A DNA stretch of 64,000 nucleotides. Source: an uncultured Gammaproteobacteria bacterium. Its GTDB lineage: Bacteria; Patescibacteriota; Patescibacteriia; Magasanikbacterales; UBA922. Shown one piece after another: positions 5,290-52,690 of the stretch. The translations under genes were made by a program, and so were the position numbers. The notes below the pieces were generated by a model. It was not told the origin of the DNA. It did not search any database and was given only the letters and a program-made list of their open reading frames with translations. The stretch is from the NCBI GenBank assembly GCA_964597575.1, contig CAZQXB010000001.1, forward strand, positions 128,964 to 192,963, in the 5' to 3' direction. The stretch's first letter is position 1, and the number at the start of each line of letters is the position of its first letter.

Positions 5290-5814
5290 ATGAAACACTA
5301 CGAAATTTTATCGATTTTGGCCGGAACAATTTCAGAAGAAGAAGTTCCAGCTCGTCTTAAGGTGATTGAAGAAATCATGGAAAAAGGTGGTGGCAGTCAT
5401 GCTACCTTAGAACACATGGGGAAAAACCGTTTGGCCTACCCTATGAAGCATATTCGCTACGGATACTTCCTTCTCGGTCGTTTCCAGGCAAAACCAGAGG
5501 CCGCTGACGCGATTCGCGCCAAGATCGCTCTTCTCGAAGGCGTTCTTCGTGTGGTCGTTCGCACCTATAACCCAAAGACTCCTCCGCATGCAACTATTGC
5601 CTTTGCTGGCATGAGCATTGCTGCTTCACGAGAACGTGAAGATGGAGAAGAAAACAGCACCGTATTTCCTTCTGCTCCAGCTCCTCGAGCTGTGGCGGCA
5701 AAGAAAGAAGCCGAAGCGCCGAAAAAAGGCGAAACCAAGGCTGATGAGGTAGATATGGCTCAGATTACAAAAAAACTTGATCAGATTCTTGAAGAAGACA
5801 TCACTGCTGTCTAA
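5290..5814 (+). CDS. rpsF: 30S ribosomal protein S6 (with acidic C-terminal extension)
   Basis: The N-terminus MKHYEILSIL… is S6-like. The gene sits in the conserved rpsF-ssb-rpsR arrangement. Confidence 0.85.
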   Translation: MKHYEILSILAGTISEEEVPARLKVIEEIMEKGGGSHATLEHMGKNRLAYPMKHIRYGYFLLGRFQAKPEAADAIRAKIALLEGVLRVVVRTYNPKTPPHATIAFAGMSIAASREREDGEENSTVFPSAPAPRAVAAKKEAEAPKKGETKADEVDMAQITKKLDQILEEDITAV

Positions 5815-5833: not shown

Positions 5834-6271
5834 ATGGATTTGAACCGCGCCACCATCATTGGGCGACTCACCCGAGATCCGGAAATGCGTACAACGCCAA
5901 ACGGACGCTCAGTGACCACGCTCTCAGTTGCCACGAACCGTTCCTGGACTGACCAGGCCGGAGCAAAGCAAGAAAAAGTGGAGTATCATAACTGTGTGCT
6001 TTGGGGGAAGCTCGCGGAAATCGCGGGGCAGTATTTGGCCAAGGGTCGTCGAGTGTATATTGAGGGTCGTATTGAAACACGCGATTGGACTGACCAGGCC
6101 GGAGTCAAAAAATACCGTACAGAAATTATTGCCGAAAACATGATCATGCTCGACGGTGCGAAGGGCGCGCCGATGAGTGGCCAACCTATGGGTGCTGCCT
6201 CCGGAAGCACATCCACTCCTCCAAAAGAAGAAGAGGTTCCCGAAATTCGGGTTGAAGATATTCCGTTTTAA
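5834..6271 (+). CDS. ssb: single-stranded DNA-binding protein
   Basis: OB-fold SSB sequence (LNRATIIGRLTRDPEMRTTPNGRSV…) with the C-terminal acidic tail ending DIPF. The start is set at MDLNRA. Confidence 0.9.
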   Translation: MDLNRATIIGRLTRDPEMRTTPNGRSVTTLSVATNRSWTDQAGAKQEKVEYHNCVLWGKLAEIAGQYLAKGRRVYIEGRIETRDWTDQAGVKKYRTEIIAENMIMLDGAKGAPMSGQPMGAASGSTSTPPKEEEVPEIRVEDIPF

Positions 6272-6290
6272 TCGTTTGTAATACATTGGT

Positions 6291-6515
6291 ATGCCAGGTG
6301 AAGTTGTTCGTAAAAAACGCCCGTGCCATTACTGTGTAAACAAGGCCGAAGTCGTTGACTATAAAGATGTCATGACCCTTCGACGTTTTGTTTCCTCATT
6401 TTACAAAATTGCCCCACGCCGCCGCAGCGGTTTGTGCGCAAGTCATCAGCGTAAGGTTGCTCGCAGCGTTAAGCAGGCGCGCATTCTTGGGCTCATGGCA
6501 TTTGTACCAAAGTAA
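6291..6515 (+). CDS. rpsR: 30S ribosomal protein S18
   Basis: 74 aa with the S18 motif (…YKDVMTLRRFVSSFYKIAPRRRSGLCASHQRKVARSVKQARILGLM…). Confidence 0.9.
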   Translation: MPGEVVRKKRPCHYCVNKAEVVDYKDVMTLRRFVSSFYKIAPRRRSGLCASHQRKVARSVKQARILGLMAFVPK

Positions 6516-21979: not shown

Positions 21980-22981
21980 CTAGGACGACCGTGCCTTCCC
22001 ATGGAATTTCTTGTGAATATTGCGTAATTCCTTATCCGTAATGTGGGTATAGATTTGGGTTGTTGTAATAGAGGAGTGACCAAGCATAGTCTGTACACTT
22101 CGGATGTCGGCCCCATTATAGAGGAGGTCTGTGGCATAGGAGTGTCGCAGAGTGTGGGGGGAGACTCGTTTCGTAATCCCAGCAGCTTTGGCATACGAGC
22201 GAACGAGTCGTTGGATTGAGCGAACGGTGAACGGAGTATCTTCTTTTTCCATCTTTTTCCCTTTGACGAGTACTGATTTTTGCCTTCGGCTATCGTGGGA
22301 TACAAAAAGGTAAGGGTTAGGGTCAAATCGTCGGCTAAGGTACTGCTTCAGCCAATAGCGAGCTTGGTCAGAAAGGAATACGATACGTGTCTTTCTTCCT
22401 TTTCCTGTCACGGTAAACTCCTCTTTGCTAATATTGATACTCTCGCGCTTGAGATTCGCAAGTTCAGAAACACGGAGGCCCGTCGAAAAAAAGAGCTCCA
22501 GTATGGCCTTATCACGAAAAGCGATGCGCTCTTCATCAGAAACGGCCCCAGGGTCAGTGGGGGGCTTGGAATTGGCCTTTATGCCGTAGACTACAAACGG
22601 TGCCTCGAGGATTCTCTCTAAATCATTGCTCTCAAGAAAGCTCACTTCACGGTCGGGCATTTTCATGAGTTCAATTTTTTCCGGAGAAAGAGATTGAATG
22701 TCGCGTTTGGCGAGGTATTTTAAAAAGGTGCGGAGCGCAATCAAATGATAGTTCTGTGTATTCTTCTTAAGAGGGGTGCCGTGAACATCGACGAGGCGAT
22801 TTAACCACAATCGATACTTTCGTACGGCTTCATCGGTGATCGTGGCAGGGGATTTCTTCTCGCCGTGCCACTCAATAAATCGTTTTAAGTAAAAATCGTA
22901 ATTTCGTAGCGTTAAATTGCTTCGGTTTCGTTCAATTTCTAAATATTCTAAGAATTGTTGGTGTAATTTTTCGAGAATCAT
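21980..22981 (-). CDS. xerC: tyrosine site-specific recombinase XerC/XerD family
   Basis: The C-terminal catalytic motif …HTLRHSYATDLLYNGADIRSVQTMLGHSSITTTQIYTHI is present, together with an N-terminal SAM-like domain. Confidence 0.85.
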   Translation of the reverse strand: MILEKLHQQFLEYLEIERNRSNLTLRNYDFYLKRFIEWHGEKKSPATITDEAVRKYRLWLNRLVDVHGTPLKKNTQNYHLIALRTFLKYLAKRDIQSLSPEKIELMKMPDREVSFLESNDLERILEAPFVVYGIKANSKPPTDPGAVSDEERIAFRDKAILELFFSTGLRVSELANLKRESINISKEEFTVTGKGRKTRIVFLSDQARYWLKQYLSRRFDPNPYLFVSHDSRRQKSVLVKGKKMEKEDTPFTVRSIQRLVRSYAKAAGITKRVSPHTLRHSYATDLLYNGADIRSVQTMLGHSSITTTQIYTHITDKELRNIHKKFHGKARSS

Positions 22982-42408: not shown

Positions 42409-44238
42409 ATGAAGCAACTTTTGAAACAATTTTTCCTTGTTATTGCAGTCTTAACGCTTGTGGCGTACGGGCTTAGTTTCGCAGCAAATCGTGCGGAAAA
42501 ACCACAAGATGTGGGCATTAGTAAGCTTGTTGAGCAGATTGAAGCAGAGGAGGTAAAGAGCATCGAGGTGAGAGGGGATTACATGTATGTAACCCTCAAA
42601 AAAGAAGGTGAAAAACAGGAAAAGGTGCGCAAAGAATATACGCAATCATTTTCTGAACTCATGACCGACTACGGTGTGGCCGGAGAAAAACTTCAAGGTG
42701 TTGAGGTGTCAGTGAAGGATGAAAGTGGTGTTGCTTTTTGGGTAAAATCACTCGCACCTTACTTGCTTCCATTTCTTCTTTTGGGAGGCCTTCTTTTCTT
42801 CATGACCCGCCAGGTAAACGGAGCAAACAGCCGGGCGATGGGTTTTGGTCAAAGCAGCGCAAAAGAAGTAAAACCAGAAGAAAGCAAAGAAAAGAAAACC
42901 TTTAAAGATGTTGCAGGTGCCAAAGAAGCGAAGGAGGAGCTTGAAGAAGTCGTGGATTTCTTAAAGAATCCGAAAAAATTTGCAGACATGGGTGCAAAAA
43001 TCCCTAAGGGGGTGCTTCTCATGGGGTCTCCTGGTACCGGTAAGACACTTCTTGCAAAAGCCGTTGCCGGAGAAGCCGGAGTCCCATTTTTCCACATGAG
43101 CGGTTCTGAATTCGTAGAAATGTTTGTGGGGGTCGGTGCGTCACGGGTACGTGATTTATTTCAAAAGGCGAAAAAATCTGCTCCAGCGATTATTTTCATC
43201 GATGAAATTGATGCGGTAGGTCGGAAACGTGGTGCGGGTTTAGGTGGAAGCCATGATGAACGTGAACAAACCTTGAACCAAATTCTCGTTGAAATGGACG
43301 GGTTTGATCCAAACATTGGGGTGATCGTTATGGCGGCAACGAATCGCCCAGATGTACTCGATCAGGCACTTCTTCGCCCTGGTCGTTTTGATCGTCGAGT
43401 CGTCATCGATAAGCCAGACTTAGCGGCGCGTTTAGAAATTTTACAGGTGCATGCAAAAAACAAGCCGTTCTCTCCTGAGGTGTCTATGCAGCGGTTAGCA
43501 GAACGCACCCCTGGATTTACCGGGGCAGATTTGGCGAATCTTCTCAATGAAGCGGCCATTCTTGCGGTGCGCCGCGGAAAGAAAATTATTGATCAGACCG
43601 ATGTTTTGGAGAGCATTGATAAAGTAATTTTAGGGCCAGAAAAACGTTCACGGGTGATGACTGATAAAGAACGTGAAATGACCGCGTACCACGAAGCTGG
43701 CCACGCGATTGTAGGTCACTTTATGCCAAAATGCGACCCTGTGCGTAAGGTGTCGATTATTGGTCGTGGTATGGCCGGGGGTTACACCTTGTCGATGCCA
43801 GAAACCGATAAACGTTACGAAACACTCGGCGACTTTAAAGACGACATGGCTATGGCTATGGGCGGCTACGTGGCTGAAGTGATGATGTATGGCCGTGACA
43901 ACCTTTCAACTGGCCCATCGAGCGATTTGAAAAAAGCGACTCAGATGGCAACTGCCATGGTCGTGCGCTATGGTATGAGTGAAAAATTGGGAACGCGTGT
44001 GTTTGGAGAGAATGAAGAACTTATTTTCTTGGCACAAGAAATTCATGAAAAGAAAAATTATAGTGAAAAGACTGCTGAAATGATTGACAGTGAAATTGCC
44101 GCAATTTTAGAAGAAGCAAAACAACGCGCAGAAAAAGTACTACAAGAAAAGAAACACAAGATGGATGCGCTTGTAAAAGTACTCATGGCCAAAGAAACCG
44201 TAGAACAGGATGAGTTTAAAAAGATCATGGAGGCGTAA
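42409..44238 (+). CDS. ftsH: ATP-dependent zinc metalloprotease FtsH
   Basis: N-terminal TM helices, AAA+ Walker A GSPGTGKT, the second region of homology, and the zinc motif HEAGHAIVG. Confidence 0.95.
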
Positions 44239-44250
44239 AAGTGGATATAA

Positions 44251-44280
44251 AAAAGACCCTTTCTAAAAGGGTCTTTTTTG
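44251..44280 (+). terminator. intrinsic terminator after ftsH
   Basis: Stem AGACCCTTT / AAAGGGTCT with loop CTA, followed by TTTTTTG. Confidence 0.7.
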
Positions 44281-44411
44281 TAACTCAACTCACATAAGCT
44301 CTATAGAACATTCGCGCCAATTGACGAGTGGCAAAACCCAATTTCTTGGGGGGAGAGAGTGCCAATGATCAGATAGTGAAAAGTAGGTATAGAGCTTGTG
44401 TGAAATGATTG

Positions 44412-44458
44412 TTTTTTCTCTCACCATATTCTTTAAGAAGAATATGGAATTGAGAAGG
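44412..44458. repeat. 48-bp nested-palindrome repeat, copy R1
   Basis: Sequence TTTTTTCTCTCACC-ATATTCTT-TAAG-AAGAATAT-GGAATTGAGAAGG. An outer inverted repeat (CTCTCA…TGAGAAG) encloses a 10-bp stem with a 4-nt loop. Confidence 0.7.
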
Positions 44459-44508
44459 TAATAGGGTCATTATAAACCCCATTACCATCCCTCCTGTTTG
44501 TGTGTTGT

Positions 44509-45003
44509 TTACTCCTTGATCGCCTTGAAGATGGCGAGGGTTTCGTCACACCACCAACCTGCATCGATGGTGCGACCAAAGAACTTCTTCTTCCAGCGAT
44601 CTGCCGGCTCGGGCCAGGGCTCGCGCACATCGAGAGAGGGTGCGAGAGAGCTCATCCGCCTATCGAGAGCCTCGAGGCGGAGAACCAGCTTTTTCAGCTG
44701 CGTCGGCGCGCCCTTTCCGAGCGTGTTTCGCACCTCGATCAAATCGTTCAGTTCATCTCTCTTTTTTGCCGCTCGCAACCATCGCGTCGGCCACTTTCCC
44801 TGGGGCGGAGGAGTCTTCTCGAAGAACTCTGCCGTTTTTTCGAGACCTTTGATCTGCGTCTCGAAGAAGGAGACGAGCTCCACTTTCTCCAGATCGAACA
44901 GACTTGTGATCATTTTCGCGATTTTTTCGAAGTCCTTCCCTGTCATCATCATTGTTTTCTCACTGAGGAGAAAGAGGGTCTTGGCCAAGTGGTTCGTCTT
45001 CAT
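44509..45003 (-). CDS. hypothetical protein (island ORFan)
   Basis: Helical and charged. Start set at MKTNHL, preceded by the RBS AAGGAG. GC-rich. Confidence 0.4.
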   Translation of the reverse strand: MKTNHLAKTLFLLSEKTMMMTGKDFEKIAKMITSLFDLEKVELVSFFETQIKGLEKTAEFFEKTPPPQGKWPTRWLRAAKKRDELNDLIEVRNTLGKGAPTQLKKLVLRLEALDRRMSSLAPSLDVREPWPEPADRWKKKFFGRTIDAGWWCDETLAIFKAIKE

Positions 45004-45204
45004 GGTTGTAGCTCCTTTTTTCTCTTTCATCGCTACAAATGAAAGAGGTAACGTGGGCATGGTTGCCACACAAATTAAAGGTTTTTGTTTACCTCGGGTG
45101 AGGTAAACATATCCTTCTCTCATCCACTCTTTTTGCAAAGAGGGGAAATTGAGAAGCCAAGTATCGTACGGACTTGGCCACCGTTTTTTTAGAAATTTAC
45201 TTTT

Positions 45205-45831
45205 TTATACCTCCTTTTTAGCCTGCATAAGCAATTGCCCCCACCATCCATGGGTACACTGCACACCCGTGACCATCTCGAGCGTCTCCCTATCGATATT
45301 CAAAGGGAAAGTGAGATAGTTCGGATGCTTTTGAGCAAACTCCGTAAAGATAGTGTCGAGGTCTGCCCCACCCTGCAGTTGGGTTTTCAGCCACTCGATT
45401 TCATCACTATTGTAGCGTACACTCCTTTCGTCGCACGCAGCCTGTCCTTGAACAATAGCCTCGTGCAATATTTCAAACCAAAGCCTGTAGAGCGCCACCA
45501 CTACGAGTGGGCTGTTTTCATTAGCCCAATCCTCCTTTTTTTCGCTTACCGCGAGCCTCAACGCTTCGGCACCGCTTTCTCTGATCTGACAGGTGTACGC
45601 ATCGAATACGTACGGGTCAGCCGCCAGCTGCAGAATTCGAAGGGGTATGATTTTTTCGACCTCCTCTCCCATAGCCCTGAGTTCGGGGATATTTTTCCCC
45701 GCTTGGCTGACCATTCCGGCGGCGATCCACCCGAATATGTCTTGGTTTCCCGTTCCAGCGATCCACGCTGCGATGCTGGTCGGGATCCATGAGGGAAGAG
45801 CGTTAATTTTGTCGTTCATCGTGTTCTCCAT
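45205..45831 (-). CDS. hypothetical protein (island ORFan)
   Basis: Start set at MENTMNDK, immediately downstream of repeat R2. On the minus strand the repeat ends GGTGAGAGGAAAAAAATG, which acts as the RBS and start. Confidence 0.4.
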   Translation of the reverse strand: MENTMNDKINALPSWIPTSIAAWIAGTGNQDIFGWIAAGMVSQAGKNIPELRAMGEEVEKIIPLRILQLAADPYVFDAYTCQIRESGAEALRLAVSEKKEDWANENSPLVVVALYRLWFEILHEAIVQGQAACDERSVRYNSDEIEWLKTQLQGGADLDTIFTEFAQKHPNYLTFPLNIDRETLEMVTGVQCTHGWWGQLLMQAKKEV

Positions 45832-45879
45832 TTTTTTCCTCTCACCACATTCTTTGTGAAGAATATGGAATTGAGGAGG
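45832..45879. repeat. 48-bp nested-palindrome repeat, copy R2
   Basis: Sequence TTTTTTTCCTCTCACC-ACATTCTT-TGTG-AAGAATAT-GGAATTGAGGAGG. Confidence 0.7.
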
Positions 45880-46032
45880 CGAACAGTGTTGATACAACCG
45901 TTCGCCAACTTGTCCGAATGCTTTGGACTTTTTTCTCAAAACAGATACAGAATGTATCCGGAAACGCATCAAGAATGGCGCGGATCTTCACCGATAGTTT
46001 TGAAATTTCGGCGCTTTTATTTTTTTACTTCT

Positions 46033-46311
46033 CTACTCCACCAGTTCGTGGTGGAGATAGTCCTCGTCCCAGTTGGGCCGGGGACGGACTTCGATGAACC
46101 GGGCCCGTAGGCCCGAATCCGTAACCACCTCCTTTCTATAGTATGAGTCGAGCCCCTTGTGGGGCTTAGAGGAGCGAGCACCCCAGATGGGACGAGTGAC
46201 GAGCGACACTCGCCCATCACTTTCAATCATGTAATACGTCCACGTCTTCACGACGAGGACGTTTGCTCCCTCCTTTTTGTCGACGTCGCTTTCCTTGACG
46301 TCGACTTTCAA
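46033..46311 (-). CDS. small hypothetical protein (start uncertain)
   Basis: The ORF begins with TTG. An internal AAGGAGG…ATG (MIESDGRV…) would give 65 aa. Confidence 0.3.
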   Translation of the reverse strand: MKVDVKESDVDKKEGANVLVVKTWTYYMIESDGRVSLVTRPIWGARSSKPHKGLDSYYRKEVVTDSGLRARFIEVRPRPNWDEDYLHHELVE

Positions 46312-46343
46312 GCTTCTTTCGTTGTGCAGCTGTTTATTTGTTC

Positions 46344-46921
46344 TTATGAAGTAGCTACTTTCACGAGAATCTCGGCGAGCGCCCGAATGGTCGGACGCTC
46401 TGCGACCGGTTCACCACGTTCGAGGTGGTGAACCGAGCCCTTATAGACACCATCCTCGCCGAGCAAAGGAGTGGTGTCACTGGATCCGTGGTAGTCACTG
46501 TGAACTTCGGCCAGTACCGAAATCCCCAGCTCCTCGCAAAATGCCCGCCACTCAGGCAGGCGGCCCATGTCACCTGCGAGGAGGATGGCATGGGTGGCAG
46601 AGGCACAGATCTCTCTGTTCTCTGCCGATGGAATTCCCCCGATGTCTACCAACGTCAGGGGAAGCGCGACATTTTTCACCGAGTCTGCGATGCGCCGCAC
46701 AAACTCGGGGGTGAACTTTGATTTATAGGCGGCCTTGAGTTCGGCCGCCCGTTCTGGGGATGTGTTCACCGTCTCCTGGAACCAGGAGCCCTCCCCATCC
46801 GGACACGCCGTAACCACGTATGGGTACGGCGCGCCCGGGATGGCCCGGATCGCGTCTTTGAGGCCCTGCCTGAGGCAGGATTTGCCAGAACGCGGCGGGC
46901 CACACAGTACCACTTTCATGG
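46344..46921 (-). CDS. P-loop NTPase, hypothetical function
   Basis: Start set at MKVVLCGPPRSGKS (Walker A), preceded by GGAGG. A putative Walker B is LTLVDIGG. 192 aa. Confidence 0.5.
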
Positions 46922-47255
46922 TTGCCCTCCTGAGGATTGTTACCGAACACTGCATGAATCTCTTTAGATTATGCGTGCGTGGTTTTGGTTTCCTCAATTG
47001 ATATTCCGATAAAATTCAGCGTATCAATCGAGGATCCTATAGCTGTTTGTGTGCCAAACAACTATAGGTCTCGAGTGCTTTGCCATTTATGTCCGGCGGA
47101 CAGGAGCTCTGCTTCTCCAAGGCTCACACAGTTTTGGTTGTGTGACCACCAGCCTGTCGTTTTCTAGAGTCAGGTATCTTCTTTTCCTAATGAAGAAAAA
47201 GAATCTTTACTCCAACCTGATAATCAATCAGGGAATTTTATCTAGAGGAAGTTGA

Positions 47256-47601
47256 TCAGACCTCCTTGACCTCCGTGGCCGGGATGACCTGCCCCAGGGC
47301 GAAGGTCGGGTTGTGGGTGATCGAGATCACGTACCCCCCCATCTTGGGGTCGAAGACCCCAACCGCACCGAACTTGTGGCACACCCCGTGCGCGATGACG
47401 CAGGCCGCGGGGAGCGAGGCCGGACCGTTGAGGAGGGCGATCTCCCCGCCCTGGAGCGCCAGGGCCTCGAGGGACGCCTTCGCGTCCCTCACGATCGCGT
47501 CGTTCTGGGCCGGGGTGCCGAAACCGATTTTCAAGAGCTTGCCGCTGCTGTTGCTGTTGTTGATGGTGATGGCGGTCGCGGTGACGTTGTAGGTCGACAT
47601 T
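47256..47601 (-). CDS. small Gly/Ala-rich protein, possibly GlcG/DUF336-like
   Basis: Start set at MSTYNV after GGAG. The motif …LALQGGEIALLNG…AACVIAHGVCHKFGAVGVF… is reminiscent of DUF336, but the family call is weak. Confidence 0.3.
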
Positions 47602-47930
47602 TTGAAACTCCTCCACACTTTTAACGAGTCGTGGTCTCTCGTTTTGTAGCAGTGCTTTACTGCGAAAGCGTGTTCGTTTACCCTGGTACGAACCAACCAG
47701 TGTTTCATTATTGTTTCTTTATCTGCATGTTTTTTAATCACATGGATAAAGGAATGGGCTGAAACAACTACCCAGTGGTACACCACCATGATGACAGAAG
47801 AAAAGTAATGAACGGGTTTGCACTCATGCATCCATCATCTGTTTTTCTTGTGTCTATATCAGGAAATTTCTTCCTGCTACTCCTTTCCTGTACATACAAG
47901 CAGTACACGAATAGAGTGGTAGAAAGATAT

Positions 47931-47979
47931 TTTTTTCCTCTCACCCGACTCTTCGTAAAGAGTAGGGAATTGAGGAGGC
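47931..47979. repeat. 48-bp nested-palindrome repeat, copy R3 (diverged stem with compensatory changes)
   Basis: Sequence TTTTTTTCCTCTCACC-CGACTCTT-CGTA-AAGAGTAG-GGAATTGAGGAGG. The stem is ACTCTT/AAGAGT where R1 and R2 have ATTCTT/AAGAAT. Confidence 0.7.
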
Positions 47980-48141
47980 GATCGATTGTTGTGCAAACAA
48001 ATCAATCGCCGTTCTCGAGTTGCAGCCAGGCATTTTGCCCAGCGAACCGAACAGACGTTCGGATCTTTCGCGCCGTTTTTTGAAGACGCGACTTTGGTTG
48101 GTGTGGACTATTTGTTGAGCGCGGTCCGAGCGCCTTTTTTC

Positions 48142-48423
48142 CTAAGTGGTGGCCATTTCGAATGCTTTTGCTCGCTCGGCGAGCCACTCTCGCGGACTGT
48201 CTCGCTTGAAGTGGCTTAGTGCCTCCTTGAACTTGCTTTCTGCGTGCTCGGCCGCCGTTCGGGCGGCTTGATACTCCTTCTCTACCTCCTCAAGGGAGGC
48301 CGAATCATAGAAGTCTTGCCTCCCTCTTTTTTTTGCCATCAGCCGTCTGAACATTAATTCCGATCCGGCTATCAACGAATTGGTCTCTTTTTCGACTTCG
48401 TTAAACTTTGCCTTGGTCATCAT
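48142..48423 (-). CDS. small charged helical protein (island ORFan)
   Basis: Start set at MMTKAKF after GGAGG. 93 aa. Confidence 0.35.
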   Translation of the reverse strand: MMTKAKFNEVEKETNSLIAGSELMFRRLMAKKRGRQDFYDSASLEEVEKEYQAARTAAEHAESKFKEALSHFKRDSPREWLAERAKAFEMATT

Positions 48424-49395
48424 CGTTTTGTCCGTTCTGCCTCCATGTGAGGCGGTTGTGTTCGTGCCACTCTGGCAGCGAATGGTTTTTCGGCGCACGA
48501 ACTTTCATTCCTGCGCTCGTTTTGAAAAACAACTTCCTGTGTTATTTTTCAGAACGAAATAAATTGTAATGATCATCGGCTCTCTATACAGCATTCGTTT
48601 CTCTCGCAAGCTGCACAGCGACCTGTATTTTCCGTGTGTCGGCTGTAGGCCCACACCATACTTCTACAAGTCAGCTGCTTCCTCTGTCGTAGTGCCGACT
48701 GTCCCTACCTCAAGTCATCTTGCGACGAGTTTGAGAAAGGACGCACTCGGTACTACCGTGTCTCGAAAAACACGTGTAGGGATATCGCGGGCGGGGGAGT
48801 GGCGTATTGCTACACCACTCGACCACACTCCCCATATCCACTCCTACCACGTGGGCAAGAGGGAGAATTTGTCGAGATCGAGGTGGGAAACCGCGTTACC
48901 GCAGTTGACCACACTCGGGTACTCATCTGGCGAAAAGGACTCTCTCCGTCTCACTTTCGTCATACTCGTACAGTTGTCTTGCGTTCGCTACAACCCTCAT
49001 TAAAGAGGGGAACTTGCGCCGACAATCGAAGGTAGGTAGGTGCTTCAGGCCTAGTCGTAACTGTATCCTGGCTTTACGCTTCCCTCGATTGTTGGAACAA
49101 AAACGCGCTCTATCCTGCGAGTACCATAAGGTACGTCTGTGGGAGAGAGCGCGTGTAGATTCTATATCTATATATGTACTGTGGTCTCCCGTAGGCTCTC
49201 TCCTTCCCTTGGGTGACCGGTTAAATTGTAAGGTGTTTAGCTTGGGTTACGTCCTCTTGGTCTTTCATCGTAACAGCACAGTATACCCGGTTTTGGTAAA
49301 TTTGTCAATATATGGCGTATGTATTATATATTTATATACTTTAATTTTGCTATATAAAGCTAAATAATGAAATATAAATATACGTCTATAAAAAC

Positions 49396-49424
49396 TTGAC
49401 AAATACAGTAAAGTATGCTATACT
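49396..49424 (+). promoter_or_regulatory. consensus sigma70-type promoter TTGACA-17-TATACT
   Basis: Exact hexamers with a 17-nt spacer, about 125 nt upstream of the trmB-like gene. Confidence 0.55.
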
Positions 49425-49549
49425 TTTGCTATAGTAAGCACAAAAAGATGTCTTCGTACGGGCAACGTACGAATGAGAGACATAAAAAAATGGCTTAAAT
49501 AAGCCAAGCTGTGGATAGTATTTTTCTACTCATTATATATAGGTTGATT

Positions 49550-50302
49550 ATGTCGACACTCAAAGATACGCTCGTCAAAGCCGGGCTACCTGAGCACCAA
49601 GCCGAGGTGTATGTAATTTTAGCGAGTGGAGGAGAAATGCTCGTGCCACAGATTCTTGCCAAAACGGAGCTCTCTCGGGCTACGGTGTACGATGCCCTTC
49701 CAGAATTATTGGTCCGCGGGTTATTGGAGTACCGAAAAGAGGGGAGAGAGGCATACTACAAACCGGTGCATCCAAACAAGCTGTTTGATTTACTGGAACA
49801 AAAAAAGCGCGATACCGCACTTCTTGAAGATGAAATGAAAACGACTATTAAAACCCTCGAAGGATCGTTTAGTTTGGCACAGAATAGAGCCGGGGTGCGT
49901 TTTTTTGAAGGGCTCGATGGTTTGCAAGTTGCGTTGAATGAATCACTCGATGCGAAAGATACGATTTATACGTTCGCTGATAGTAAAACCGTTGATGCCT
50001 ATTTAGCGCAAATTGATAAAGAGTATATCTCCAAGCGACTAAAAAAGCAGATTAAAAAGAAACTCATTTTAACAGACAGCGAAGAATCGAGAAAATATGT
50101 GGCTTCGATGAATACAGAATTCACTGAGGCAAAATTAATTGACCCGGCAAAATACCCATTCACCGTTGCGGTTGAAGTATATAATAACGATGTTTCATTT
50201 TTGTCGGTCAAAGATGGGCACGTGGTTTCCTTTGTTGTCACTCATGAAGAAGTGGCGCGATTTCATCGCTCACTCTTTGAGTTTTTGTGGGACAGGCTCT
50301 GA
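49550..50302 (+). CDS. TrmB-family transcriptional regulator
   Basis: N-terminal winged HTH (LKDTLVKAGLPEHQAEVYVILASGGEMLVPQILAKTELSRATVYDALPELLVRGLL) plus a C-terminal sensor-like domain. Confidence 0.6.
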   Translation: MSTLKDTLVKAGLPEHQAEVYVILASGGEMLVPQILAKTELSRATVYDALPELLVRGLLEYRKEGREAYYKPVHPNKLFDLLEQKKRDTALLEDEMKTTIKTLEGSFSLAQNRAGVRFFEGLDGLQVALNESLDAKDTIYTFADSKTVDAYLAQIDKEYISKRLKKQIKKKLILTDSEESRKYVASMNTEFTEAKLIDPAKYPFTVAVEVYNNDVSFLSVKDGHVVSFVVTHEEVARFHRSLFEFLWDRL

Positions 50303-52690
50303 AACTTTCTCAAAGCCATAGAGTCGTTCAACTTTGCGTTCCCCTAGTTCAAAATGACGAACAAGCTGGTATCCATTTTCCGTGAGTTTTGAAAAAGTCT
50401 GAGAGAGAATGGGAAGATCTTTTGGTACAGTGGCAATAAAAACAATTTGATTTTTTCCATCAAGAGGGAAGTCTCGGGGGGCTTGATGGGCTAGAGCCAT
50501 AAGATCTTCTTTGGAGAGCTTACGCAGTACACTGCTTTTTTCATCTTTGGGAATTTCTATTTCAAACCAACCATGCTTTGTGCCAGGGGCTTCTTTGTCA
50601 TATTTTACTCCTCTAAAACCAAGTTTTTCAACATAATGCGTAAGGGCTAGATTTTCCGGCACCCCTAAGGCCTCAATGGTTTGGGATCCATGATAAGATC
50701 GAATTGTCTCAGCTAAAAACTGTTCGCCAATAGCAGCACTTTTCAGATCGGGCGAAACATTCAGGCTACCAAGATATACACGGTCATCCCCTTTTTCTTC
50801 AGCACGAAGAAAAGCCGCAATACTTTTTTCGCCCTTATCATTTTGTCGCCAAAGTATTCTAAAGTCATTTTTTTGAAGAGCGTCTGAATCTTTTCCAGTC
50901 TGAGGAAAAAGCATAGACCGTACTTCTTTCGGAACTTCTGGCTCATCAGGATAGTTAGCTTCAGAAATAGTTATCATTTCTTCTTTTTCTTCTTCCGTCA
51001 AAGTTTTTCCAGGTTTTATTTCTAAAGAGAGGCCTTGGACAAGGTTCCAATCTACGCCTTCTTTCCCTTTGAAGGTTGCTTTAAAAATAGCGGCCAAGGC
51101 GACGGTCGAGGCTTCAATGCGTTCAAGTTCTTTAAGAAGTGTCTCAGGGTCCTTATCTTCTGCCTCTGCAAAGTGTTGGAGAAGCTGTGCTGCCCGTGCC
51201 GCAGCCTCTTTTGCTGCCACAGCGTGAATATTTGTATCTGAATGGCGAGGAAGAATCGAAGTGACGTATTCATCAATTCTTTCCGAGACGGTCATGACAT
51301 TGCTGTAGGCCGAAAATACTCGTTTGGCCGTTTCTTTTGGTAGGGTTTTGGCAATGGCAAGTGGAGTTTCTAGTCCCGTTTTTCCTGTCGTTGCAAAAGA
51401 CAACGCAGCTCGCGCACCATATTCTTTGAAGTGAAAGAGGAAAGCTGGAACCAATTCTTTACTATCTTCGGGAAGATTTTTTTGCCAGGAAAGGAACCAT
51501 TGTTGTTCGGCAAAAGAGAGGGTTCTCCATGGAACAAAAGGAAGTTCTTTTTCAAGCGCAAGAAGATCATGAGTGTATGATTCAGGAGTGCTTGCATCCG
51601 TTGGAAGAGGAAGAAATTGTCCAAGCTCCAGTAAGCGTTCTTTTGGGGTTACCGTGATCCTCTGACTCTCTCCATGAGGTAACGAGAAAATACCTTTGGT
51701 TTCTCCATGACCATCAACAATGGCAAAGGTGTCATTTTGGGCAATTCGTTCAACGGTGAACTCGGGGCGGTTGTATGCTCCCAAATCCCATGTTTGTCCG
51801 TAACAGGAAAAACCATCTTTCTCTATTTTGTAGGTGTTCTTGGTATTGAGAAAAAGAAGGGTGGTTTCAATATTTTTTTCACCCATGCCTGGAGCATGAA
51901 GTTCGGGGTCAGCTAGTCGTTCTCTGCGTAATTCTTGTTTTGCTTTGAAAAGGGATTGCTCAGTGTAATCTTTATCAATTTTTTTCAGAGCAGTCGATGG
52001 AATGAAAAAAATGCCATCTTGCTTGGCCAGATTGACCACATAATCGATAGTTTTTTTACTTCCAAAGGAGCCTAAGAGATCAGTAATTTTTGCGAGCATG
52101 ACCATGTGTGGGTCAAATGAAGTGTGAAACCCTGATTCAAATTCAGCTTGCATATTGTCTGACTCCTGATCATTCCGAAAATATTCAAGAACCACTTTGT
52201 TTGAGAGTGATAAGTCTGCTGTGTTTTCTTCATCATAAAGCAAGCTTGGGTTTTTTTCAGCAGACTGAGGATTTCTATTTTGGGCATTAATAATCTTCCT
52301 CCTTCGTTCAAGAATAGCCTCTGAAAGTTTTTGGTATGTGGCATCAACCCATTCTTTTGGAAGGTGATTCTGCAGTTTCTGGTCATGAGATATTTTTTGC
52401 AAAATACAATATAGAAAAAAGTCGTCGCCCCGTTCTGGGGAACGTTCGGTATCGTTGTCTTGAAGTTCAGGGAGGGTATCTTCTGGATTTGAGTAGTCGT
52501 ATGTCTCAATTGCAGTAGTGGCGGCAACGCAAAATTCATCCACTGAACCGATCAGCTGAGAAAGAATACGTTTTTCGAGTTCCGGGCGAATTCTTCCTGT
52601 GGTATAGAAATAATCGTTCTTCCTCTTGGCGTAGTCAGTGGCCTCTCTCGCGTCATCTATAAGTTGTCTCTGATACTCAGATGCTTGCAT
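50270..52690 (-). CDS. large hypothetical cytoplasmic protein (806 aa)
   Basis: Long ORF with consistent codon usage. The C-terminal ~150 aa are weakly GNAT-like (…RVYLGSLNVSPDLKSAAIGEQFL…). Confidence 0.5.
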   Translation of the reverse strand: MQASEYQRQLIDDAREATDYAKRKNDYFYTTGRIRPELEKRILSQLIGSVDEFCVAATTAIETYDYSNPEDTLPELQDNDTERSPERGDDFFLYCILQKISHDQKLQNHLPKEWVDATYQKLSEAILERRRKIINAQNRNPQSAEKNPSLLYDEENTADLSLSNKVVLEYFRNDQESDNMQAEFESGFHTSFDPHMVMLAKITDLLGSFGSKKTIDYVVNLAKQDGIFFIPSTALKKIDKDYTEQSLFKAKQELRRERLADPELHAPGMGEKNIETTLLFLNTKNTYKIEKDGFSCYGQTWDLGAYNRPEFTVERIAQNDTFAIVDGHGETKGIFSLPHGESQRITVTPKERLLELGQFLPLPTDASTPESYTHDLLALEKELPFVPWRTLSFAEQQWFLSWQKNLPEDSKELVPAFLFHFKEYGARAALSFATTGKTGLETPLAIAKTLPKETAKRVFSAYSNVMTVSERIDEYVTSILPRHSDTNIHAVAAKEAAARAAQLLQHFAEAEDKDPETLLKELERIEASTVALAAIFKATFKGKEGVDWNLVQGLSLEIKPGKTLTEEEKEEMITISEANYPDEPEVPKEVRSMLFPQTGKDSDALQKNDFRILWRQNDKGEKSIAAFLRAEEKGDDRVYLGSLNVSPDLKSAAIGEQFLAETIRSYHGSQTIEALGVPENLALTHYVEKLGFRGVKYDKEAPGTKHGWFEIEIPKDEKSSVLRKLSKEDLMALAHQAPRDFPLDGKNQIVFIATVPKDLPILSQTFSKLTENGYQLVRHFELGERKVERLYGFEKVSEPVPQKLKE

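Follow-up and report, generated by a model that had tools for sequence, protein, structure and literature searches.

What does a short palindromic element do that recurs, always in the same orientation, between the genes of one small chromosomal region? The question is raised by a 64-kb stretch of DNA (contig CAZQXB010000001.1, positions 128,964 to 192,963; the whole stretch analyzed is called the window) whose nearest named FtsH homologues come from Candidatus Magasanikbacteria (Patescibacteria). An original prediction had described three copies of a 48-bp palindromic element (R1, R2, and R3) and had offered three explanations: a mobile unit of the REP (repetitive extragenic palindromic) or MITE (miniature inverted-repeat transposable element) type, a shared operator, and a regulatory hairpin in 5′ untranslated regions (5′ UTRs). 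We find that the full unit is an ~80-nt double hairpin of the minus strand, in which a variable hairpin, hp1, on the 5′ side is followed by a conserved hairpin, hp2, and that this double hairpin is a genuine structured element under selection. As to its role, the explanation that we favor, and to which we give an even chance, is a cis-acting, intercistronic structured mRNA signal that occludes a ribosome-binding site (RBS) and perhaps directs processing or stability.

Four copies of a covarying double hairpin

Four copies of the element, in the order R3, R2, R4, and R1, lie on the minus strand of the window and span 3.6 kb. A covariance model trained on nine copies, from the window and from relatives, gave 72.8 bits for hp2 of R3 (47929-47978), 72.6 bits for R2 (45830-45879), 60.4 bits for R4 (45108-45157), and 67.1 bits for R1 (44409-44458); these scores of 60 to 73 bits have E values of 1e-14 to 1e-18, and the runner-up in the 64 kb reached 15.7 bits. 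The three copies first described sit where they had been placed and have the architecture ascribed to them; their count was too low by one, R4 (45113-45157) having been overlooked. The search pattern proposed with them recovers R2 and R3 only, and it misses R1 because this copy, whose sequence had been given as CCTCTCACC, starts TCTCTCACC. Nor are the outer arms perfect CTCTCA/TGAGAG repeats, as had been assumed; that exact pattern matches 0 times. The pattern CTCTCAYC-N20-30-AATTGAG matches four times in the window (for R4, at 45117-45153), against 0.00 matches expected from shuffles, and the gap from CTCTCA to AATTGAG is exactly 24 nt in every window copy. In model coordinates, the copies start 699, 722, and 2099 bp apart, with whole genes between them, which excludes an array of clustered regularly interspaced short palindromic repeats (CRISPR). 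The covariance model found no copy in the ~6 kb beyond the window (L112). A 12-bp hairpin at 46985-47035, in the spacer between the Csx3 and AAA genes, was considered as a further copy and rejected, being under the reporting threshold of the model; it reads CCUCGAUUGAUA...UAUCAAUUGAGG and has a CCUC...GAGG logic in common with the element.

hp2 is a two-tier hairpin: an outer stem (CUCA/UGAG plus 1 to 3 extra pairs past a one-base bulge) and a 10-bp inner stem are separated by an AAUU internal loop. Its arms read CYUCUCAAUU...GRUGAGAG on the sense strand and CTCTCAYC...AATTGAGRAG on the other. In R3, CCUCCUCA and AUU are followed by the inner stem, in which CCCUACUCUU and AAGAGUCGGG close a UACG loop, and then by UGAGAGG and a run of seven adenines. 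Across the nine-copy alignment, neither the outer arms (CUCA and UGAGAG) nor the AAUU loop varies. Inspection ruled out a kink-turn as a reading of the AUU bulge, as no tandem G·A pairs follow the bulge. The predicted energy of hp2 stays at −15 to −19 kcal/mol across all variants despite the turnover of their sequences (R3, −18.3 kcal/mol; R4, −17.9 kcal/mol), and three of the window copies fold with z-scores of −5.3 to −6.2, R4 with one of −2.5.

Covariation is what establishes selection on the hairpin. Double compensatory changes have occurred in 7 of the 10 pairs of the inner stem, and 93.5% of the alignment cells are paired, compared to 47 to 58% after sliding of the partner column; the covariation score of the real alignment was not reached in any of 500 shuffles. 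The exchange of ATTCTT/AAGAAT for ACTCTT/AAGAGT, from which selection had originally been proposed, is thus genuine, and it is one among many.

The compensatory changes also decide against the shared operator. Outer arms that are inverted repeats, together with a winged-helix regulator gene only 1.5 kb away, could suggest a double-stranded DNA operator for the TrmB/ArsR-like regulator of the island that carries the elements. The half-sites would, however, be ~27 bp apart, and a compensatory change in the center is meaningless to an operator in duplex DNA, which would not need it; we reject this explanation as having next to no chance of being correct. Better candidates for operators are the AT-rich palindromes and direct repeats between 49327 and 49446 (49327-49382; 49335-49367 and 49414-49446). 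They lie between two divergent predicted promoters, one on the minus strand (49308-49280) and one on the plus strand (49396-49424) that faces the TrmB/ArsR-like regulator gene (49511-50302), and likely are operators of this adjacent regulator.

The second hairpin, hp1, had been missed. It directly adjoins every window copy of hp2 on the upstream side, has a stem of 8 to 12 bp, and shows no sequence similarity among copies. Fold prediction places it at 47977-48010 in R3 (GGCGAUUGAUU...AAUCGAUCGCC), at 45878-45906 in R2 (GGCGAACGGUUGUAUCAACACUGUUCGCC), at 45156-45178 in R4 (GCCAAGU...ACUUGGC), and at 44457-44486 in R1 (GGUAAUGGGGU...ACCCUAUUACC). Comparison of orthologues shows that compensatory changes preserve hp1: GGCGAAC...GUUCGCC of R2 has become GGCGAGC...GCUCGCC, that is, A-U has become G-C, in the orthologous copy L087b, and hp1 of R3 stays a hairpin in its orthologues on the related contigs L048 and L083 despite substitutions. 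Beside hp1 of R2, on the plus strand, lies a terminator-like hairpin with a T-run (45912-45937; GTCCGAATGCTTTGGAC TTTTTT), which is antisense to the genes and might keep antisense transcripts from running into the island operon.

Paired stem-loops in a long transcript are known from the put antitermination RNAs of phage HK022, adjacent stem-loops that act in cis. The units described here resemble them in having two stem-loops 0 to 1 nt apart, in their presumed cis action within a long transcript, and in recurring within one putative operon. They differ in that there is no sequence relation, hp1 is variable, and no bypassable terminators were identified downstream of each copy.

A proposed signal between the cistrons of a putative operon

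Folding of both strands, one of the checks initially suggested, gave stable hairpins, and the sense (minus) strand was the more stable one in eight of the nine copies. Wobble pairing is biased in the same direction, with 14 G·U pairs in the predicted sense folds and 6 in the antisense folds. Moreover, four of the eight distinct loops are of the UNCG (UACG and UGCG) or GNRA (GCAA and GAAA) type on the sense strand and none on the antisense strand; UACG is the loop of R3 and GCAA that of R4. The binomial chance of at least four such loops in eight is ~3e-4 for independent copies and ~0.02 when counted as two of five lineages. Wobble pairs, energies, and tetraloops are suggestive and make RNA, transcribed as the minus strand, the likely functional form.

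Between 44.5 and 48.5 kb, every credible gene is encoded by the minus strand, and all four copies are intergenic and sense to these genes. In minus-strand order, orfA (48423-48142; 93 aa) is followed by the R3 unit, a 330-nt leader, the Csx3 gene (47256-47600), a 336-nt spacer, the AAA ATPase gene (46344-46919), and g3 (46311-46033); then come the R2 unit, fused to g4 (45205-45831; 208 aa), the R4 unit, g5 (44509-45003; 164 aa), and the R1 unit, the last copy, with no gene after it and ~130 nt to a terminator. The distance of ~330 nt from the end of R3 to the start of the Csx3 gene at 47600 had been recognized before. Most simply, the elements occupy the intergenic regions of one operon, and a near-consensus promoter on the minus strand (TTGACA-17-TATACT, 49280-49308, 11 of 12 consensus matches) probably drives this operon with all four of them. 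Each copy is preceded by a gene, whose stop codon lies ~20 to 130 nt ahead, and then by the variable hairpin, and in one of four cases a start codon follows. Since only this one copy precedes a start and all follow a gene and a hairpin, "intercistronic" is a more apt term than "5′ UTR." The 5′ UTR hairpin nevertheless came closest among the three initial explanations: action at the RNA level is the best of the three options, and a position at the 5′ end of a gene applies to R2 (g4) and to the copy L087a of a relative, which precedes a NUDIX gene, but not to R1, R3, and R4.

The putative operon ends at a canonical bidirectional intrinsic terminator (44246-44282; an inverted repeat with 17-nt arms at 94% and A/T-run flanks), which it has in common with ftsH on the plus strand (42409-44238). 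With such a terminator present, the elements are not the terminators of this organism. An intrinsic terminator was also rejected on the features of hp2 itself: there is no U-tract, an A-run follows hp2 on the sense strand and a T-run precedes it on the other, and the terminator scan passed over the elements.

The link to translation lies in the 3′ arm of hp2, which together with the A-run (GGUGAGAGGAAAAAAA) forms a strong Shine-Dalgarno sequence with an A-rich spacer. In R2, GAGAGG and A7 are the RBS of g4 and adjoin its start codon (ATG, 45831-45829), as had been noted, and GAGAGG-A7-AUG initiates g4; in the relative, GAGAGGAAACAACAAUG of L087a initiates the NUDIX gene. The 5′ arm, CCUCCUCA, is pyrimidine rich and anti-Shine-Dalgarno-like, and it pairs with the purine-rich 3′ arm UGAGAGG, so that the RBS is closed within a hairpin of ~−18 kcal/mol.

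In our model, a gene-specific hp1 is followed by hp2, which would hold the ribosome-binding sequence closed and, as a signal between cistrons, control the translation, the processing, or the stability of those on either side. That the loop and the outer arms do not vary implies that a protein or the ribosome recognizes them. In the most concrete version, which is built on the analogy to phage T7, an endonuclease would cut at the internal loop, as at the RNase III sites of that phage; the upstream RNA would then keep a protective 3′ hairpin, and the Shine-Dalgarno sequence would be freed for the downstream gene. The intercistronic RNase III signals of T7 (R0.3, R1.1, and others) are repeated two-tier hairpins between the cistrons of a polycistronic transcript. 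The element resembles them in its intercistronic position, its upper and lower stems with an asymmetric internal loop, its conserved loop-proximal sequence, and its covarying stems, and, like them, it could affect a downstream RBS and provide the upstream RNA with a 3′ hairpin. It has no similarity to them in sequence, however, its helix has only 15 to 17 bp, an extra variable hairpin is present, and the host is an island in a patescibacterial chromosome rather than a phage; cleavage is putative here.

Several points weigh against this model. A start codon follows two of the nine distinct copies (R2 and L087a) and none follows R1, R3, R4, L083, or L087b; with one in four window copies and two in nine copies ahead of a start, a purely translational role fails for R1, R3, and R4. 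The total helix of hp2, at 15 to 17 bp, falls short of the ~20 bp that RNase III substrates typically have. Among the nine copies there are about three types of inner stem, which paralogues have in common, so that the number of independent events is lower than the cell counts imply, although there are still several. G·T pairs are tolerated in folded single-stranded DNA, so that the strand bias is compatible with a role as single-stranded DNA as well. The end of homology at the 3′ edge of hp2, described below, is predicted by a recombination site too. Finally, we infer the operon and its promoter from a consensus scan.

The first of these points could be turned around: the copies may be decaying paralogues of one 5′ UTR/RBS module that functions only at R2 and L087a, the others being relics left after cargo and leader were swapped together by homologous recombination. 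This would account for the two start codons and for the AUA that R3 has at the exact position of the AUG of R2, and inner-stem types common to the paralogues within a genome fit duplication or gene conversion. Relics, however, would gather disruptive changes, whereas R1, R3, and R4 have complete pairing, the invariant AAUU and outer arms, and −16 to −18 kcal/mol, equal to R2, and the orthologue of R3 in L083 has changed its inner stem by compensation and is fully paired. We therefore consider decay unlikely.

A strain-variable island and its cargo

In three relatives with 75 to 77% FtsH identity (L106, L108, and L109), ftsH is directly followed by pilus genes. This adjacency identifies the 8.4 kb of the window from ~44.3 to 52.7 kb as an insertion, and the best explanation is that the island was acquired horizontally and varies among strains. 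The genes after R3 encode a Csx3 protein (Pfam Cas_csx3, 8.4e-07; PADLOC Csx3, 4e-15) and an AAA ATPase of the Csx3-AAA type (PADLOC Csx3-AAA, 4.8e-58). The two are separate genes here, although they usually are fused, as in the PADLOC Csx3-AAA model; the window contains no CRISPR array and no other cas gene. No match in Pfam, PHROGs, NCBIfam, or PADLOC was obtained for the products of g3, g4, g5, and orfA or for the 244-aa and 151-aa proteins of the relatives introduced below.

What lies between the elements changes from strain to strain. In L048 (JGI sample 3300045502), Csx3, AAA, and g3 (window 46027-47665) are replaced over positions 566-2346 by unrelated genes, one G+C rich and coding for 244 aa and one for 73 aa, and by a degenerate fifth hp1-hp2 unit (1885-1964). 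L087 has an orthologue of R2, a different leader, a 151-aa gene, and then another hp2, with a stem of the R3 type, and the NUDIX gene. In L083, yet another gene follows the orthologue of R3.

Such variation raises the alternative that the boundary is one of DNA: hp2 would be a structure-specific recombination site that folds as a single strand, as attC sites of integrons do, and foreign genes lacking promoters would be inserted or exchanged at it, with a resident promoter upstream. The similarity to attC is considerable, with imperfect palindromes, conserved outer arms, and a variable center of conserved structure between compositionally foreign genes in the same orientation, with a resident promoter upstream and cargo that differs from strain to strain (Csx3, AAA, and g3 here, the 244-aa protein in L048, the 151-aa and NUDIX proteins in L087, and another protein in L083). 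The bin at 46 to 48 kb, which contains Csx3, AAA, and g3, has 53% G+C, compared to 42 to 49% in the other 2-kb bins. Island genes have strong Shine-Dalgarno sequences (GGAGGAG for Csx3, AGGAGGG for AAA, and AAGGAG for g5), whereas, among the 29 core genes of the window with upstream regions listed, most have none (e.g., 42409, 41109, 53806, and 21980-22981). The island itself is inserted between ftsH and the pilus/T2SSE genes, and in two comparisons, L087b with R2 and L087a with R3, homology ends at the A-run that closes hp2.

Against such a boundary stands, first, the only replacement seen in full: the breakpoints of L048 lie ~265 nt downstream of the 3′ end of R3 and ~120 nt upstream of hp1 of R2, away from the elements. 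Second, the attC core RYYYAAC/GTTRRRY is absent. Third, no recombinase, integrase, or transposase, IntI included, was found among the scanned open reading frames (ORFs), which cover the island, ~18 kb upstream, and ~10 kb downstream (26.2 to 63.2 kb), and the family of an 806-aa island protein is one that has a C-terminal GNAT domain. In addition, the spacing of the elements, unlike that of attC sites, takes in leaders and multigene units, and the RNA-type tetraloops and wobble pairs of the sense strand favor RNA. A role as cassette boundary thus appears improbable. Broader still, the island might be an integron-like platform for gene capture that lacks a recognizable integrase and consists of the strong resident promoter, a structured leader RNA of ~700 nt, the divergent winged-helix protein, and slots delimited by hp2; hp2 would then be a new type of folded recombination site, and G+C-rich genes with their own Shine-Dalgarno sequences, among them those of enzymes that degrade nucleotide signals, such as the Csx3 ring nuclease and the NUDIX hydrolase, would have been loaded into the slots. 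We regard this as a long shot.

Further observations concern the island and its surroundings. The 806-aa protein (50270-52690, minus strand) itself has no match in Pfam, PDB, or PHROG; its family comprises 784 cluster representatives at an E value of ≤1e-3, and many of the matches scanned have a C-terminal GNAT acetyltransferase domain. Directly downstream of the promoter at 49308-49280, ~700 nt of the minus strand (48560-49272) contain no credible ORF. Compared to the relative L102 (78%), this segment has patchy conserved blocks, such as GGGAAGGAGAGAGCC with its complement GCGCUCUCUCC and GUAGUACCGAGUGCGUCC, and it has no match in Rfam; it is a candidate for a large noncoding RNA or a long structured leader of the island operon. 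The noncoding block around R3 (47838-48140, minus strand) has at least four more hairpins beyond hp1 and hp2. It is 78% identical to positions 1003-1328 of L083 and thereby better conserved than the adjacent coding sequence of orfA, which blastn does not align, and its consensus fold has compensatory changes in two of the extra hairpins. In some core genes, a −10-like box lies a few bases ahead of the ATG (TATAAT is 8 nt upstream of gene 22981), which suggests leaderless mRNAs.

Distribution and significance of the element

The element follows the island. L048, with an FtsH 90% identical, has the same four copies and the degenerate fifth, which scores 18.6 bits in the covariance model and has its own hp1; L102, with an FtsH 78% identical and the island, has one copy of 63 bits. 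The model detected no copy in island-less relatives, and the element was not found in the FtsH relatives L103 to L106 and L108 to L111 (75 to 78% identity). A pattern scan of metagenomes gave 34 matches, of which the genuine ones, three copies, are on the short contigs L083 and L087. A stricter pattern gave 19 matches in 185,579 species-representative genomes, all by chance and all lacking the inner stem, and CTCTCAYC-N18-22-GRAATTGAG gave 46 in viral contigs, again all by chance and without inner-stem pairing. For orfA (93 aa) and the 806-aa protein, homologue searches recovered nothing beyond the query sequences and added no new loci. In the window, Rfam 15 at gathering thresholds reported two tRNAs only, and a permissive search of 44200-49500 found nothing on the elements. 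Our literature searches turned up no account of elements of this kind in Patescibacteria. The element is new to the catalogues and confined to one island in a narrow lineage of Patescibacteria.

This distribution bears on the first of the initial explanations, a selfish palindromic repeat of the REP, BIME (bacterial interspersed mosaic element), or MITE type that a transposase mobilizes in trans. The element would fit in being a short repeated palindrome whose ends are conserved, and the island copy of L102, which lies near other palindromes and is flanked by a 55-nt direct repeat, would fit as well. Such a repeat should not, however, be confined to a single 3.6-kb cluster and a single orientation, and no true copy was detected in the rest of the 64 kb, in the extra ~6 kb, in the 185,579 species genomes, or in the viral contigs. 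The copies occupy orthologous sites in L048, L083, and L087, in genomes diverged to ~78%, the flanks of the units have no target-site duplications, for which a search had been suggested, and the scanned ORFs include no Y1, RAYT, or other transposase. A selfish origin is disfavored and, in our estimation, very unlikely. REP/BIME elements are nonetheless instructive, since they act as intercistronic stabilizers of mRNA, for example between malE and malF. Like them, the elements are repeated intergenic palindromes that would be transcribed within an operon and could protect upstream mRNA; unlike them, they are four and clustered, in one orientation and with variable stems, whereas REPs are dispersed by the hundreds in both orientations, have a conserved stem, and are associated with RAYT.

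The islands of the relatives contain other repeats as well. In L102, two other palindromes (GAUUUCUCCCUC...GAGGGAGAGAUC; regions 5371-5463 and 6057-6335) follow the same logic of a pyrimidine arm and a purine arm; one of them is 3 nt from the true hp2 copy, and the pair is bracketed by the 55-nt direct repeat (6057-6111 and 6280-6335). A leader segment of 152 nt is repeated at 89% identity in L083 (551-701) and L087 (923-1072; both in plus-strand coordinates) ahead of two unrelated genes. It is absent from the window and represents a second type of repeated noncoding module in these islands.

The element falls into the wide class of hairpin elements repeated in intergenic regions; the T7 RNase III sites would be its closest mechanistic analogue. 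Its practical value is modest, as it is known from a handful of related metagenomic genomes. It marks a strain-variable island with cargo that differs among close relatives: in the window, a Csx3 ring nuclease and its AAA partner; in one relative, a NUDIX hydrolase. To our knowledge, almost no RNA regulation has been characterized in the Candidate Phyla Radiation. If the RNA reading is true, the double hairpin would be a compact, well-covarying, new cis-regulatory or processing motif from this radiation. Given that the island genes have strong Shine-Dalgarno sequences and the inspected core genes do not, an element that hides the Shine-Dalgarno sequence could keep foreign genes in check.

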